From Escherichia phage vB_EcoM_SHAK7854, in sequence record OR594182: DNA of 39,734 bases; one strand, 5' to 3'. The notes under the pieces were generated by a model that ran no database searches, was not told the origin of the DNA, and saw only the letters and a program-made list of their open reading frames with translations. Shown here in pieces: positions 3,215 through 39,255 of this stretch. The position numbers and the translations under genes were made by a program. How positions within the stretch are numbered: position 1 is the stretch's first letter; every line of letters begins with the position of its first letter.

Positions 3215-3341
3215 GTACCACATCAACACGAAACAACGGTGACGACCAACACTGAAACGGTCTACCTGAAGTCCTCTGACTGAAGGGAATGCTCTTTAAC
3301 AATCTGGATAAACTCTTAATGTGCGCCGACAGTGATTAACT

Positions 3342-3390
3342 ACAGGGTCTTTGAGTCTACATCTGAAGGCCCTGACTGATAGCCACTAAC
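3342..3390 (+). repeat. early intergenic hairpin element type A, copy 1 (candidate RNase III site)
   Basis: GTGATTAACTACAGG...CCTGACTGATAG element with internal inverted repeat; precedes ORF 3398. Confidence 0.5.
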
Positions 3391-3397
3391 TTAACGG

Positions 3398-3652
3398 ATG
3401 GACACTATGAAACACTTAAGCACAATCACTAATCGCAATGAAGTATTCGTGAACACTAAAGGTTATGCGTGGATTCAGCTTAAAGAGATGAGAGGAGCGC
3501 GTCACCGTGTGGTAGTTCGCAAGGTATCAAGCAAGCCGTTCAGCAACTACAGCGTAGATACTATGCGTATAGACAACGAGACTTACCTGATAGACTCGCA
3601 GATAACCGTGCGTCCTACAGCGGGCATCTCAGCTCCTTATTTCGCTAACTGA
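3398..3652 (+). CDS. hypothetical early protein (84 aa)
   Basis: first ORF of the early region, downstream of the candidate host promoters; no homology recognised. Confidence 0.55.
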   Translation: MDTMKHLSTITNRNEVFVNTKGYAWIQLKEMRGARHRVVVRKVSSKPFSNYSVDTMRIDNETYLIDSQITVRPTAGISAPYFAN

Positions 3653-3654
3653 GG

Positions 3655-3705
3655 GTGATTAACTACAGGTCGTTAGACTGATAGCGGCCTGACTGATAGT
3701 CACTA
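3655..3705 (+). repeat. early intergenic hairpin element type A, copy 2
   Basis: GTGATTAACTACAGGTCGTTAGACTGATAGCGGCCTGACTGATAGTCACTA; CAGGTC/GGCCTG stem. Confidence 0.55.
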
Positions 3706-3725
3706 GCAACCTAAGAGGATTCATT

Positions 3726-4004
3726 ATGAGACTGAACAAAGCTACAGCAGAAGCCTTTCGCAAGGAGCTTGAATCAAGATTATTGTGTGGAGTGGCGGAA
3801 GGAGCCGCTCGATATAAAGAGAATGGTCTAACGTTCAAGCGCTTTATGTGGGATTGCTATCACGGAGTGGGCCATAAAAAGTCGCAGGAAATAATCACCA
3901 GCAACAATGCGGAAGTGCAAGTGATAGGAGGATACATGGCTAACGTGAAGGATTCACACATAGAGACAATGCTTAAGAATGCACTTAAAGATGTAGCCTA
4001 CTAG
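3726..4004 (+). CDS. hypothetical early protein (92 aa)
   Basis: ORF with AGAGGA RBS 7 nt upstream. Confidence 0.6.
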   Translation: MRLNKATAEAFRKELESRLLCGVAEGAARYKENGLTFKRFMWDCYHGVGHKKSQEIITSNNAEVQVIGGYMANVKDSHIETMLKNALKDVAY

Positions 4005-4054
4005 TGATTAACTACAGGTCGTTAGACTGATAGCGGCCTGACTGATAGTCACTA
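4004..4054 (+). repeat. early intergenic hairpin element type A, copy 3
   Basis: identical to copy 2 over about 50 bp. Confidence 0.55.
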
Positions 4055-4084
4055 ACACATAATTAACTTTGAGAGGATATAACT

Positions 4085-9117: not shown

Positions 9118-9140
9118 CCTAAACTATCACTATAGGATTA
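9118..9140 (+). promoter_or_regulatory. phage RNAP promoter (phi1.1-like)
   Basis: CCTAAACTATCACTATAGGATTA. Confidence 0.7.
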
Positions 9141-9182
9141 GACTCAAGGTCATGACTCAAAGTCGTGGCCTTCATGATTAAC
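9138..9182 (+). repeat. hairpin element type B (candidate RNase III site, R1.1-like)
   Basis: TTAGACTCAAGGTCATGACT...AGTCGTGGCCTT imperfect 12-bp stem. Confidence 0.5.
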
Positions 9183-9213
9183 CCTAAATAAACACTACTG
9201 GAGATTTAACCGT

Positions 9214-9648: not shown

Positions 9649-10712
9649 TGACTACGACTATTAAAACTAACCCGCACCGCGCTGTAGATTACTCTGAGTC
9701 AGGAGTTACGAAAGCACTGGCAGCAGCCGGGTCGCTGGAAGCTGAAGTGAAGTATGATGGTGTGCGGCTGAACCTACCGGTCTTCCCTACTGGTGAGACT
9801 CAATGGTTGAGCCGTGAGTCCAAGCCTCTTCCAGCCCTTGAGTGGCTATCAGTCCGGACCAACATCGACAACATCGTGGAAGACCAACAGATGGCTAGTG
9901 ACTGGCGATGGTTCCTGAAGCAGGCTGGATACGAAGGCACTGGCCTGATGATTGACGGTGAGGTCATGGTAAAGGGTGTAGACTTCAACACATCCTCAGG
10001 TCTTATACGAACGAAGTACGTCAAGTCTAAGAACTACGACTTCCACGATGGTGACTGGGACCTGAAGTCAAAGACTATACCATTCAGACTGGACCCTGAG
10101 CACATCAAGGTAATCGTCTACGGTGTCATCGACCTCAACGTCATCACCGACCCGAAAGCCGAAGGTCCTATCCATAGCGTCACACGCCTGAAGGCGGAAG
10201 CTATCGTCCCTCTCCTCCAGAAATACTTCCCGGAAATCGACTGGGTTCTGTCTGAGTCACACACGGTCTATGACCTTGAGTCGCTCAACTCCCTGTACGA
10301 ACAGAAGCGTCTGGAAGGACATGAGGGTCTGGTAGTCAAGGACCCGCTGGGTAAATATAAGCGTGGCAAGAAGTCTGGCATGTGGAAAATGAAGCCTGAG
10401 GAGACCATAGACGGGACCGTGTGTGGCCTCGTGTGGGGTACTCCTGGTAAGGCCAACGAAGGTAAGGTGATTGGCTTCGAGGTGCTGCTTGAGGATGGCA
10501 TGGTGGTTAACGCCTGTGGTCTGTCTGAAGAACAGAAGGACGAGTTTACGGAAGCCTGTAACACTGATACATATATTCTCGGTGGAATCAATCCGTACGA
10601 AGGATGGCAGTGTGAAGTACTCTTCATGGAGCGGTTCCCAGATGGATCCCTTCGTCACCCTAGCTTCAAGTGCTGGCGTGGAACGGAAGATAACCCAACC
10701 GTTAAGAGTTAA
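9648..10712 (+). CDS. ATP-dependent DNA ligase (T7 gp1.3 family)
   Basis: IKTNP, adenylation motif KYDGVR, EGHEGLVVKDP, KRGKKSGMWKMKPE, SLRHPSF. Confidence 0.93.
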   Translation: MTTTIKTNPHRAVDYSESGVTKALAAAGSLEAEVKYDGVRLNLPVFPTGETQWLSRESKPLPALEWLSVRTNIDNIVEDQQMASDWRWFLKQAGYEGTGLMIDGEVMVKGVDFNTSSGLIRTKYVKSKNYDFHDGDWDLKSKTIPFRLDPEHIKVIVYGVIDLNVITDPKAEGPIHSVTRLKAEAIVPLLQKYFPEIDWVLSESHTVYDLESLNSLYEQKRLEGHEGLVVKDPLGKYKRGKKSGMWKMKPEETIDGTVCGLVWGTPGKANEGKVIGFEVLLEDGMVVNACGLSEEQKDEFTEACNTDTYILGGINPYEGWQCEVLFMERFPDGSLRHPSFKCWRGTEDNPTVKS

Positions 10713-11814: not shown

Positions 11815-11969
11815 CTGACGTAGAGAAGAAGTACATCGTGGAGCTTGAGGGTCGCATTCAGTCCTTCGAGGTTCCGGTGTACGCAAAGTCTCTTGAAGAG
11901 GCTACCCTGAAGTCCCAAGAGTATGAGGACGCTGGGTTTGTGGTCGGACGGATTCGTCCTGAGACCTAA
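11811..11969 (+). CDS. Gp2-like inhibitor of host RNA polymerase (52 aa)
   Basis: [14 protein letters not shown]...[10 protein letters not shown] resembles T7 Gp2 SFEVPIYAETLDEA...AGFEVTRVRP. Confidence 0.75.
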
Positions 11970-11987
11970 ACTATCACTGTAGGACAG
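11965..11987 (+). promoter_or_regulatory. phage RNAP promoter, variant (TGTAGG)
   Basis: CCTAAACTATCACTGTAGGACAG; stop codon of the Gp2-like gene lies within it. Confidence 0.55.
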
Positions 11988-12027: not shown

Positions 12028-12729
12028 ATGGCTAAAGAGCAACTGAAGACTTTCACCACTCCGGTAGCTGGTATTGTTGAGCCTTACGCATGGCTTAACA
12101 AAGCAGACACCAAGTTCAACGAGCGTGGTGAACACAAAGTCAACCTTACATTCGACCTGAGCAACCCGAAGGTCCGTAAGATGATTGATGTCTTACAGAA
12201 GATTCACGACGATGCGTATGCGAAAGCACTTGCAGACCACGAGAAGAACCCACCTCAGGTTCAGCGTGGCAAGAAGCCTATTGAACCACGAGAAGGCGAC
12301 ATGCCGTGGATTGAGAATGGTGACGGTACTGTTACCCTGAAGTTTAAATGCTTTGCGTCTTACCTGAAGGATGGTAAGTCAGAGCCTATCGTATTACGGT
12401 TCTACGACACCGATGCTAAGTTAATCCGTGACGTCCCGAATATTGGCGCTGGCTCAAAGCTGAAGGTCAAGTTTAAAGTCCTGCCGTTCAAGTGGAACGC
12501 TGCGACTGGTGCAAGCGTTAAGCTACAGCTTGAGTCCTGCCTTCTGGTAGAACTGAAGGAATGGAAAGGTGATGGTGCTGGTGGCGATGGTGGCTGGGGT
12601 GATGATGAAGACCTTGGTACTGGTTACAAAGCGTCAACCGTTGGTGACTTCGGTGGTGATGACTTTGGGTCTGACGATGGTTACGAAGGTGGTGACGACT
12701 CCAACTCTGGTGGCGATTACGACTTCTAA
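12028..12729 (+). CDS. single-stranded DNA-binding protein (T7 gp2.5 family)
   Basis: 233 aa; Gly/Asp-rich acidic C-terminus ending DYDF as in gp2.5. Confidence 0.9.
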   Translation: MAKEQLKTFTTPVAGIVEPYAWLNKADTKFNERGEHKVNLTFDLSNPKVRKMIDVLQKIHDDAYAKALADHEKNPPQVQRGKKPIEPREGDMPWIENGDGTVTLKFKCFASYLKDGKSEPIVLRFYDTDAKLIRDVPNIGAGSKLKVKFKVLPFKWNAATGASVKLQLESCLLVELKEWKGDGAGGDGGWGDDEDLGTGYKASTVGDFGGDDFGSDDGYEGGDDSNSGGDYDF

Positions 12730-13181
12730 TGGCCCAATGGTCTGCAAAACGGGGGCACTCTGTGGGTGCCTACCGCTCTGGACTTGAAGCCAAGAACCAG
12801 CAGTGGCTGGAACAGAACGGCGTCAAAGCGGAGTACGAAAGCCATTATATCAACTATGTGATTCCGGCTTCCGACCACAAGTACACACCAGATTTTATTC
12901 TTCCTAACGGCATCATCGTGGAGACCAAAGGAATCTTCGATAGTGATGACCGTAAGAAGCACCTTCTGGTACGAGAACAGCACCCTGAGTTAGACATTCG
13001 GTTCGTGTTCTCAAGTTCACGCTCCAAGTTATACAAAGGGTCTCCGACCACGTATGGCGCATGGTGCGAAAAGAATGGCTTTAAGTATGCCGATAAATTC
13101 ATCCCGGTTGAGTGGCTTCGAGAGGCGACTGTACGTCTGCCTTCAGGTATACTCATCCCCAAGAAGAAAGGAGTTAAGTGA
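12729..13181 (+). CDS. endonuclease I / Holliday junction resolvase (T7 gp3 family)
   Basis: FRSGLE, YVIPAS, YTPDF, ETKG, DDRKKHLLVREQHPELDIRFVFSSSRSKLYKGSPTTYG. Confidence 0.93.
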   Translation: MAQWSAKRGHSVGAYRSGLEAKNQQWLEQNGVKAEYESHYINYVIPASDHKYTPDFILPNGIIVETKGIFDSDDRKKHLLVREQHPELDIRFVFSSSRSKLYKGSPTTYGAWCEKNGFKYADKFIPVEWLREATVRLPSGILIPKKKGVK

Positions 13182-13672
13182 TGAGCAAGAAGTTTAAACT
13201 GTTAGTAGATGCGCATGGCTGGCCTAGTGGGACTATAGTTACCAAGTGTGAGAATGACCCCGTACCAGATTCAAGAATGACCCTAGTTGAGTGCCAGACT
13301 CCAGGCGCATACAAACATGGGTCTAACGGCTGCAATACTCAGCCTGAGGGTATGTGGGGAGCATGGGTCCTTAATTGGAAACTTGAGGAAATCAAGCCGG
13401 AAGAGAAACTCACTGGTGTCCAAACCACTCAAGTCCTGCCAGCTTCGAGCGTACCGCCTGTGACTTTGAAGCGTGAAGTCCTGACCATCGACAAGATTGG
13501 TGTAGGCCAGACGTTCATCGTCCATGGAAAGCCTGAAGAAGTTTACGTGAAGATTAGCAACTCACACGTCTTCAACCATAAGCATCTCCAGATGCACACC
13601 ACGGACGCACAACGCTTCACCCAGCACCTGAATCTGGTTGTCGTAGAATTGGTGGTGTGCAATGGTAAGTAA
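13181..13672 (+). CDS. hypothetical protein (about 163 aa) inserted between gp3 and gp3.5
   Basis: ATG overlaps gp3 stop (TGATG) and the ORF overlaps the gp3.5 start; no T7 counterpart. Confidence 0.55.
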   Translation: MSKKFKLLVDAHGWPSGTIVTKCENDPVPDSRMTLVECQTPGAYKHGSNGCNTQPEGMWGAWVLNWKLEEIKPEEKLTGVQTTQVLPASSVPPVTLKREVLTIDKIGVGQTFIVHGKPEEVYVKISNSHVFNHKHLQMHTTDAQRFTQHLNLVVVELVVCNGK

Positions 13673-14120
13673 GGTACAGTTCAATCCACGGTCCAGGACC
13701 GACGCTATCTTCGTTCACTGTTCGGCTACCAAGCCAGAGATGGACATCGGGGTAGAGACCATCCGTATGTGGCACAAGCAGCAAGGCTGGCTGGACGTAG
13801 GCTACCACTTTATCATCAAGCGCGATGGTACTGTGGAAGAGGGACGCCCGGTCAATGTCGTAGGGTCACACGTTAAGGACTGGAACTCACGGTCTGTAGG
13901 CGTCTGCCTTGTAGGTGGAATTGACGCTAAGGGCAAGTTTGAAGCTAACTTCACTCCGGCCCAGATGAACTCCCTGCGCAACAAGCTGGCTGACCTGAAG
14001 GTCCTGTATCCTCAGGCAGAAATCAAAGCACACCATGACGTAGCACCTAAGGCGTGTCCAAGTTTTGACTTGCAACGCTGGCTGTCTACCAATGAACTGG
14101 TCACTTCCGACCGTGGTTAA
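13662..14120 (+). CDS. N-acetylmuramoyl-L-alanine amidase / lysozyme (T7 gp3.5 family)
   Basis: DAIFVHCSATKP, QGWLDVGYHFIIKRDGTVEEGR, GVCLVGGIDAKGKF, APKACPSFDL, NELVTSDRG. Confidence 0.93.
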   Translation: MVSKVQFNPRSRTDAIFVHCSATKPEMDIGVETIRMWHKQQGWLDVGYHFIIKRDGTVEEGRPVNVVGSHVKDWNSRSVGVCLVGGIDAKGKFEANFTPAQMNSLRNKLADLKVLYPQAEIKAHHDVAPKACPSFDLQRWLSTNELVTSDRG

Positions 14121-14144: not shown

Positions 14145-14360
14145 ATGATTAAACTTATCGAATTTCTTGGTCGTCTGGTGGTGCGTGGTTATCGTCGTGC
14201 TGCGGTACTGGAACGAAAGGTAGAAAAGAAGACTGCGGACGGTGCGGCTGATGCTGCTGCTCTGGCTGACAAGCTGACCATCGCGTCACTGGAAGCTGGC
14301 ATGAAGGCGCGTCAGGCTGACACCAAAGCCGACCAGTTGGCTCAGTTCTTCAAAGCCTAA
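14145..14360 (+). CDS. hypothetical protein (71 aa; gene 3.8 position)
   Basis: AGGGAGAA RBS; Ala/Lys-rich, probably helical. Confidence 0.5.
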   Translation: MIKLIEFLGRLVVRGYRRAAVLERKVEKKTADGAADAAALADKLTIASLEAGMKARQADTKADQLAQFFKA

Positions 14361-14378
14361 ACTATCACCTTAGGGATG
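14356..14378 (+). promoter_or_regulatory. phage RNAP promoter, variant (CCTTAGGG)
   Basis: CCTAAACTATCACCTTAGGGATG; overlaps upstream stop; followed by GGGAC...GTCCC hairpin. Confidence 0.5.
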
Positions 14379-16140: not shown

Positions 16141-16305
16141 TTGCTAAGAAAACTTAAAGCTCGCTACCATCGGTTCATGTACAAATGGTGGAGCGACGAA
16201 GCAACCTGCCTGTCGAACATTCTGGGAGACCAGCGGTTCAACTCTGAGGCATGGAAGAAAGCTAACCGGAAGTTCATGTATCACTTCTTGCGTACAGACT
16301 TCTAG
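16141..16305 (+). CDS. hypothetical basic protein (54 aa; gene 4.3-4.5 region), TTG start
   Basis: AAGGAGGAG RBS; the ORF-track ATG start at 16108 lies inside gp4. Confidence 0.35.
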   Translation: MLRKLKARYHRFMYKWWSDEATCLSNILGDQRFNSEAWKKANRKFMYHFLRTDF

Positions 16306-16357
16306 GTCTAGACTCAAGGTCATTCACATAGAGTGGCCTTTATGATTAGACTAAACG
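16306..16357 (+). repeat. hairpin element type B (candidate RNase III site)
   Basis: GTCTAGACTCAAGGTCAT...GTGGCCTTTATGATTAGAC. Confidence 0.5.
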
Positions 16358-38894: not shown

Positions 38895-39154
38895 CGCAGA
38901 TGGACTTAGAGAAGTTCCTCTTGATGCTTGATACTGAGCGTGCTCGACTTATGCTGCAAGACTTGCGGGATGACACTAAGCGTTCACCTCAGCTCTACAA
39001 CGCCATTGAGAAGCTGCTTGCTCGTCACAACTTTGTGTTAAGCAAGGTGTCTGTTGACGAGAAGACGCTGGCTGATATGGAGGCCCTGAACGCAGAGTAC
39101 GATAAGGTGCTTTCAGCGACTGAGGATAATGACACCGGGTATGGCGTTCAATAA
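38891..39154 (+). CDS. terminase small subunit (T7 gp18 family)
   Basis: LMLDTERA, RSPQLYNAIEKLLARH matches T7 gp18. Confidence 0.85.
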   Translation: MTQMDLEKFLLMLDTERARLMLQDLRDDTKRSPQLYNAIEKLLARHNFVLSKVSVDEKTLADMEALNAEYDKVLSATEDNDTGYGVQ

Positions 39155-39155
39155 G

Positions 39156-39205
39156 TGTTAGACTCAAGGTCATTACTGTATGTAGTGGCCTTTATGGTTA
39201 ACACT
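39156..39205 (+). repeat. hairpin element type B (candidate RNase III site, R18.5-like)
   Basis: GTGTTAGACTCAAGGTCATTACTGTATGTAGTGGCCTTTATGGTTAACAC. Confidence 0.5.
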
Positions 39206-39255
39206 AACTAGTGGAGGAGACTCTACGTGCAATCTGATAAACCGGGAGGGCAACT

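Follow-up and report, generated by a model that had tools for sequence, protein, structure and literature searches.

The window analysed here is the 39,734-nt sequence of Escherichia phage vB_EcoM_SHAK7854 (OR594182), a Kayfunavirus (K1F/LM33_P1-like). Between the genes for endonuclease I (gene 3) and N-acetylmuramoyl-L-alanine amidase (gene 3.5), it carries on the same strand an ORF of 163 codons, which we call gene 3.2 (Table 1). An earlier note on this DNA had described an ORF of this length that overlaps the stop codon of gene 3 in a TGATG and runs into the start of gene 3.5, and the description is right in every detail; an in-frame GTG lies one codon 5' of the ATG, at 13178, both in the ORF listing and in the raw sequence. 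As had also been noted, the ORF is an extra gene relative to T7, since in T7 genes 3 and 3.5 meet at the same base (10706), where one ends and the other starts. The tight coupling to both neighbors is equally evident, through the shared base of the TGATG with gene 3 and the 11-nt overlap with gene 3.5. Overlaps of the same kind with the gene 3 stop are present in homologous gene 3.2 loci, and the 11-nt overlap with the amidase is retained in two divergent members of the family (P0129 and P0130). The start and stop overlaps suggest that translation of gene 3.2 is coupled to that of both its neighbors.

Table 1. Features of the gene 3.2 region (positions in the window)
Feature	Position	Strand	Remarks
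Phage promoter before gene 2.5	11962..11984	+	CTAAACTATCACTATAGGA family member; nearest promoter upstream of gene 3.2
Gene 3, endonuclease I	12729..13181	+	Pfam PF05367 Phage_endo_I, E 8e-82; upstream neighbor, left-hand cassette boundary
Shine-Dalgarno AAAGGAG	13167..13173	+	Within the end of gene 3, 7 nt before the gene 3.2 ATG; read from the sequence
TGATG	13179..13183	+	Gene 3 stop TGA (13179-13181) and gene 3.2 ATG, one base in common
Gene 3.2 coding sequence	13181..13672	+	163 aa and TAA; ATG 13181-13183, TAA 13670-13672
N-terminal module, type A	13181..13393	+	aa 1-71; predicted SH3-like barrel; hypervariable, exchangeable cassette
Linker, Pro/Glu/Thr-rich	13394..13459	+	aa 72-93; ends in conserved VLPASSVPPV; right-hand cassette boundary
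Constant C-terminal domain	13460..13669	+	aa 94-163; predicted small SH3-like barrel
Hallmark motif Y122-F146	13544..13618	+	YVKISNSHVFN-x4-QMHTT-x3-RF; invariant polar patch of the family
Gene 3.5, N-acetylmuramoyl-L-alanine amidase	13662..14120	+	Pfam PF01510 Amidase_2, E 2e-16; downstream neighbor
Overlap of gene 3.2 end and gene 3.5 start	13662..13672	+	11 nt; from the ORF listing and the sequence
Next phage promoter, before gene 4	14353..14375	+	None between 11962 and 14353

The window contains a family of 23-nt promoters for the phage RNA polymerase, with a consensus of about CTAAACTATCACTATAGGA. It has 12 copies, which start at 1823, 5794, 9115, 10793, 11962, 14353, 20017, 22856, 23836, 28624, and 35910, plus a weak copy at 9180. 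Because none of them falls between 11962 and 14353, gene 3.2 is predicted to be transcribed together with genes 2.5, 3, 3.5, and 3.7. Between 12000 and 14600 we found neither a sigma-70-like promoter nor a terminator on the + strand. The earlier note had put the ORF forward as a candidate moron. That label does not fit a gene that lies within a phage-polymerase unit bounded by the promoters at 11962 and 14353: lacking an autonomous promoter and terminator, gene 3.2 is not a classic moron.

A stretch of 1.5 kb around the ORF is 98.9% identical in DNA sequence to Escherichia phage vB_EcoP-101136BS1 (species Kayfunavirus LM33P1) and ~92% identical to K1F and EcoDS1. The ORF carries the name gene 3.2 (gp3.2) in the annotation of K1F and EcoDS1, and 3.01 (gp3.01) in that of the Citrobacter phages CR44b and CR8; its product is labeled hypothetical in every record, vB_EcoP-101136BS1 included. 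The gene is therefore already known as an ORF, the family having been named with the K1F genome and the window copy being 98% identical to an annotated hypothetical protein (QZI79902 of vB_EcoP-101136BS1). What is new with respect to the literature searched is the dissection into domains, the assignment of an SH3-like fold, and the cassette behavior of the N-terminal slot. Searches of the literature for gp3.2 and gene 3.2, the accessions, the PHROG identifiers, and anti-defense in Kayfunavirus returned genome tables only, with no functional information. The K1F, EcoDS1, CR44b, and CR8 proteins share family, position, and two-domain layout with the window protein; the K1F protein is about 72% identical to it in the N-domain and 93% in the C-domain. 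Nothing essential distinguishes the window protein from the K1F type, apart from its own residues at hypervariable positions and a Cys for the consensus Tyr at residue 160. At this residue (13658-13660) the window has TGC, and nearly all aligned members, the closest relative at 98% identity among them, have Tyr or Phe (VVYNGK).

Three records deserve comment. In the second deposited K1F sequence (NC_007456.1 / DQ111067, around 9969-10112), the tblastn match to the C-domain covers its residues 1-48 only, compared to 1-70 in AM084414, which suggests that the two K1F records differ, through a frameshift or otherwise in sequence, at the 3' end of the gene. In Escherichia phage vB_EcoM_SHAK9454 (OR594184.1, an UNVERIFIED record), a label "similar to endonuclease VII" appears at this locus. 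We discarded it as a clue to function, as the feature table is out of register: the mislabeled feature extends from the end of a gene 3.2 of type E (see below) into the start of the amidase, and the true order is endonuclease I, gene 3.2, amidase. Finally, Providencia phage PSTRCR_120 (MW358928) has an unrelated ORF of 117 aa between its gene 3.2 homolog and the amidase (positions 1659-2012 of the extracted locus, L026). Insertion of small accessory genes seems to be a general property of the junction of genes 3 and 3.5.

The window protein matches PHROG 16385 over its full length (residues 1-163, E 6.1e-94) and PHROG 15211, that of the short form, over residues 94-163 (E 7.5e-38); neither carries a functional annotation. 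The observation that the protein has no recognizable motif held up: there was no match in Pfam (E up to 1), in NCBIfam (E up to 10), or among PDB sequences, and none of the PADLOC models, a library of defense rather than anti-defense proteins, matched at E up to 10. Nine other family members, chosen to cover the other module types described below, gave nothing above noise when scanned against the sequence libraries; their matches to Imm11, YlzJ, and ApaG (E 0.04-0.2) lie below the cut-offs of these models and were rejected. When 1.8 billion representative proteins were searched exhaustively with a profile, the matches fell into only 17 clusters (50% identity), each consisting of family members or fragments, and included no distant relative of known function.

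In a large protein database the window protein has 255 homologs, mostly from contigs of 39-40 kb. A synteny comparison, as proposed in the earlier note, places gene 3.2 between endonuclease I and the amidase, on the same strand, in each of the 25 related loci that were examined first, and likewise in the members that diverge most. Given this number of homologs, the same position in every locus examined, and synonymous differences that far outnumber nonsynonymous ones, gene 3.2 is a real gene rather than a chance ORF. A few type A copies (see below) from metagenome assemblies (P0123, P0131, P0132, and P0134) are truncated or frameshifted; either errors of assembly or a natural decay of the N-terminal module could explain them. 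Such copies are what could be cited for a spurious or decaying ORF devoid of function, an explanation that the conservation data refute: both halves of the gene have a pN/pS well under 1, the Shine-Dalgarno and coupling signals are conserved, the folds are predicted with confidence, and one motif is invariant across members that are only 30% identical. We regard this explanation as practically eliminated.

The protein consists of two parts with very different histories. The C-terminal domain (aa 94-163) is almost invariant within Kayfunavirus. By tblastn we detected it in 220 of 50,697 phage records, and in 220 of the 247 that match the gene 3.2 region; nearly all are Kayfunavirus-like, and the domain is always encoded between genes 3 and 3.5. 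The hosts of these phages include Escherichia, Salmonella, Enterobacter, Citrobacter, Shigella, Klebsiella, Cronobacter, and Providencia, among others, and gene 3.2 is confined to one phage lineage. The hallmark of the domain is a motif whose family-wide form is Y-x3-SNSHxFN-x4-QMHxT-x3-RF, to which residues 122-146 of the window protein conform (alignments A2 and A3). Thirteen of its residues (Y122, S126, N127, S128, H129, F131, N132, Q137, M138, H139, T141, R145, and F146) are invariant even in members that are 30-35% identical. The domain is also found alone, as a protein of 74-75 aa with no N-terminal module, in 13 of 23 IMG/VR loci.

We quantified the rates of nonsynonymous and synonymous differences in the C-domain and in the two flanking genes. 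For the C-domain, pS is 0.48 and pN 0.11 across 26 loci (pN/pS 0.23); the ratio is 0.16 when only the 8 type A loci of this set are counted, and 0.12 in a set of 19 unique genes of type A. The corresponding values are 0.14-0.18 for endonuclease I and 0.13-0.17 for the amidase. The C-domain is therefore under purifying selection, and is as constrained as the two enzymes between which it is encoded. We also considered whether a DNA or RNA element could account for its conservation. This was ruled out by the freedom of synonymous sites to vary (pS 0.36-0.48 across sets), on account of which the conservation must act on the protein; in keeping with this, there is no Rfam match, and neither a sigma-70-like promoter nor a + strand terminator is present. 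A C-terminal half that is conserved in 220 phage records, and constrained as strongly as endonuclease I and the amidase, again argues against the label of moron. The accessory character that had been suggested for the gene is seen in the behavior of its N-terminal half only, which is exchangeable, and not in the C-terminal half, which behaves as a conserved gene. The earlier note had considered its view refutable by a conserved core gene of known function; the gene has proved to be conserved, and it is labeled hypothetical everywhere.

In front of the C-domain, at least seven unrelated N-terminal modules fill the same slot. Type A, that of the window, is recognized by GWPxGTIVTKC...GMWGAWV, type B by CKDLxVGxxYxF, and type C by YRVLNT...; the remaining types are D, E, F, and G, the last in a group of Providencia phages. 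Modules can also be stacked, with A and B together in proteins of 221-227 aa and A and E together in one protein (P0119). We considered that the modules might be diverged duplicates of one another, and rejected this, as hhalign found no significant pair (the best, module B versus the C-domain, had a probability of 32% over 17 residues). No N-module matches a Pfam family, or any PHROG beyond 16385 and 15211. Module A is present in 55 phage records, module B in 27, and module E in 10, in each case only at the gene 3.2 locus; a scan of metagenomes for further type A loci yielded only 6. Type A is mostly found in phages of E. coli, and 7 of the 10 records of type E are from Enterobacter phages, a skew that is confounded by phage phylogeny. 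Between module and C-domain runs the linker, in which A88, S89, S90, P92, and P93 are invariant (alignment A1). In one member (P0104) a linker heptapeptide, PEVGEQT, is tandemly duplicated; the linker thus tolerates changes in length.

The boundaries of the slot are sharp. When the window is compared block by block with phages that carry other modules, DNA identity is at least 90% through endonuclease I up to its stop codon, collapses from 13181 to about 13430, and is back to at least 90% at the linker segment VLPASSVPPV, remaining high through the amidase. A phage with module B (L008) is 97.6% identical to the window upstream of the slot and 95.9% downstream, a phage with module E is 97.9% identical downstream, and two phages that have no module (L019 and L021) are 96-97% identical upstream. 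With flanks nearly identical and modules different or absent, exchange, addition, or loss of the module must have taken place on what is essentially one backbone. It is the N-module whose presence is patchy among close relatives; that of the C-domain is not.

Within type A, the N-domain evolves faster and diverges more deeply than its flanks, with dN not above dS. In the 19 unique genes, pS is 0.59 and pN 0.24 (ratio 0.40), with ratios of 0.25 in strands and 0.47 in loops. Counting methods applied to these 19 genes do not support a claim of positive selection on this domain: no partition has a pN/pS of 1 or more, and the synonymous sites are close to saturated. Relaxed constraint and alleles of old origin, instead of an arms race, could account for the variability. 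In a set of 96 unique type A sequences, we count 27 near-invariant positions (G13, W14, G17-T21, C23, D26, L35-E37, G42, H46, G47, G50, Q54, P55, and G57-V63, among others) and 16 with an entropy above 2 bits. The most variable positions accept up to 17 residues (A11, D30, and A43) or 16 (V28 and L64). Hypervariable positions alternate with invariant residues of the scaffold, and almost all of them are located in predicted loops or at strand ends.

Structure prediction with AF2 gave complementary views of the two halves. With the full-length alignment, the N-domain forms a block of five strands with pLDDT 61-90 (average about 78), the linker is unstructured (pLDDT 33-48), and the C-domain is poorly resolved; with a more diverse alignment of the C-domain, this domain reaches pLDDT 80, with a core near 90, and is modeled as four to five strands with a short helix ahead of the last one. 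In these models both domains are SH3-like barrels, i.e., five-stranded small beta-barrels. Fold searches returned generic small barrels, and a search of a library of viral structures returned only members of the family and uncharacterized small proteins. The nearest known domains are SH3 and other small beta-barrel binding domains (eukaryotic SH3, Tudor, KOW, FeoA, and the C-terminal domain of DtxR), at sequence identities of 4-17%; by profile, the protein belongs to none of the curated SH3, SH3b, Tudor, or KOW families (Pfam E up to 1; NCBIfam E up to 10).

SH3-like folds also bind nucleic acids and peptidoglycan. A nucleic-acid-binding protein of KOW, Sm, or Tudor type, acting on phage DNA or RNA in replication, recombination, or translation, is a rather unlikely identity for gp3.2. 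Still less probable is a separate cell-wall-binding subunit for the adjacent amidase, in the manner of the SH3b domains of endolysins or of PlyCB in PlyC. No Pfam family of SH3b type matched at E up to 1. Furthermore, the peptidoglycan of enterobacteria is chemically uniform and so gives no reason for a diversity of modules, the T7 amidase has no need for a binding domain, and gene 3.2 is made in the period of DNA metabolism, alongside the replication genes. We also considered a sponge for a host immune signaling nucleotide, similar to Tad2 or Acb2, in which the polar patch would form the ligand pocket of an oligomer. Neither profiles nor fold comparison gave a significant match to Tad2 or a nucleotide-sponge family, and we judge this role highly improbable.

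A more serious alternative, on balance also unlikely, is that gp3.2 is a regulator internal to the phage, its C-domain binding and tuning or restraining endonuclease I, the amidase/lysozyme, the polymerase, or another replication protein, and its N-modules being secondary decorations. The amidase/lysozyme of T7 also inhibits the phage RNA polymerase. In every member the gene lies between genes 3 and 3.5 and overlaps both, even in the most divergent ones, an arrangement that would favor co-translation in a fixed proportion; the C-domain is constrained like both enzymes, and it occurs with no N-module at all in many phages. Such strict coupling to endonuclease I and the amidase fits an internal role at least as well as it fits the adaptor that we propose below. 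On the other hand, such a protein is absent from T7, T3, and most other relatives, in which the same enzymes operate. Across 26 loci, moreover, C-domain variants recombine freely with respect to those of endonuclease and amidase, with no visible co-variation, and a regulator of these enzymes would leave the variability of the N-terminal slot unexplained.

We tentatively favor the view that gp3.2 is a protein-binding adaptor, in which a constant anchor is combined with exchangeable, host-specific modules. It would be a small, nonenzymatic protein of the middle class (the DNA-metabolism period), made of two SH3-like barrels joined by a flexible, proline-rich linker. The C-terminal barrel may anchor the protein, through the invariant polar patch SNSH..N....QMHTT...RF, to a partner that does not change from host to host; this would be either a conserved machine of the host or a phage protein made from the same transcript. 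The role of the N-terminal barrel would then be recognition: as an exchangeable module, it would contribute an interaction specific to a strain or genus, most plausibly by binding or evading a variable host factor, e.g., an immunity protein. This reading is suggested by the cassette behavior of the slot, by the concentration of variability in loops, and by the partial skew of module types toward host genera. It also fits the habit of T7 of keeping small inhibitors of host proteins among its class II genes, where the small nonessential genes 1.2, 4.5, 5.5, and 5.9 encode such inhibitors; K1F has no annotated genes 0.7, 4.5, or 5.9. We infer from these observations that gp3.2 acts by binding, that its variable module faces the host, and that its role is in host takeover or counter-defense.

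The adaptor may be taken one step further, to a proposal that is possible, if doubtful. The slot from the gene 3 stop to the gene 3.2 linker would be a dedicated "specificity cassette," in which the SH3-like anchor delivers interchangeable and stackable modules, of at least seven unrelated kinds, each of which neutralizes or hides from a different strain-specific immunity factor. If this hypothesis is true, then alleles of gene 3.2 should set the intracellular host range independently of the tailspike.

The class II host modulators of T7 (gp1.2, an inhibitor of dGTPase; gp4.5, of Lon; gp5.9, of RecBCD; and gp5.5, which binds H-NS) resemble gp3.2 in being small, encoded amid DNA-metabolism genes, expressed from phage promoters with no signals of their own, and restricted to a lineage. 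They differ in that there is no homology between them and gp3.2, and in that a host target of gp3.2 is only inferred. To our knowledge, none of the four consists of a constant domain fused to exchangeable modules. For this feature, the closer likeness is to the modular receptor-binding proteins of phages, which also combine a conserved part, sharp mosaic boundaries, and unrelated modules swapped between near-identical backbones. Unlike these, gp3.2 is a middle-gene product of 8-25 kDa encoded outside the virion genes, and its orientation is reversed, with the N-terminus variable and the C-terminus constant.

K1F- and LM33_P1-like phages are under development against invasive E. coli, Salmonella Typhi, and Enterobacter, and their host range is usually ascribed to the tailspike alone. 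Gene 3.2, which occurs throughout the genus and has its N-terminal half swapped among genomes that are otherwise nearly identical, is a concrete candidate for a second determinant of strain specificity, one that would act inside the cell and is easy to engineer. Its C-domain represents an orphan fold family of 70 residues with an invariant polar patch; identifying the partner of this domain would bring to light a step in infection by T7-like phages for which T7 has no need. If gene 3.2 instead regulates endonuclease I or the lysozyme, it would add to two well-studied enzymes of T7 a layer of control that is specific to a lineage.

Several repeats were observed elsewhere in the window. A sequence of 183 nt is present in two tandem copies, 100% identical, at 2424-2606 and 2607-2789. 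It resembles a direct terminal repeat, as in the linear genomes of T7-like phages, that was captured twice where two units of a concatemer meet. In that case, the assembly of the window would be circularly permuted, with the true left end near 2424 or 2607. The early region (3331-4057) contains a pair of 54-nt repeats, 98% identical, at 3655 and 4004, and 16-nt copies at 3331, 3654, and 4003. Lastly, an element of 21-53 nt (TTAGACTCAAGGTCAT...GTGGCCTTxATGrTTA) recurs at three sites, 9133-9190, 16303-16348, and 39153-39210, possibly as processing or terminator hairpins.
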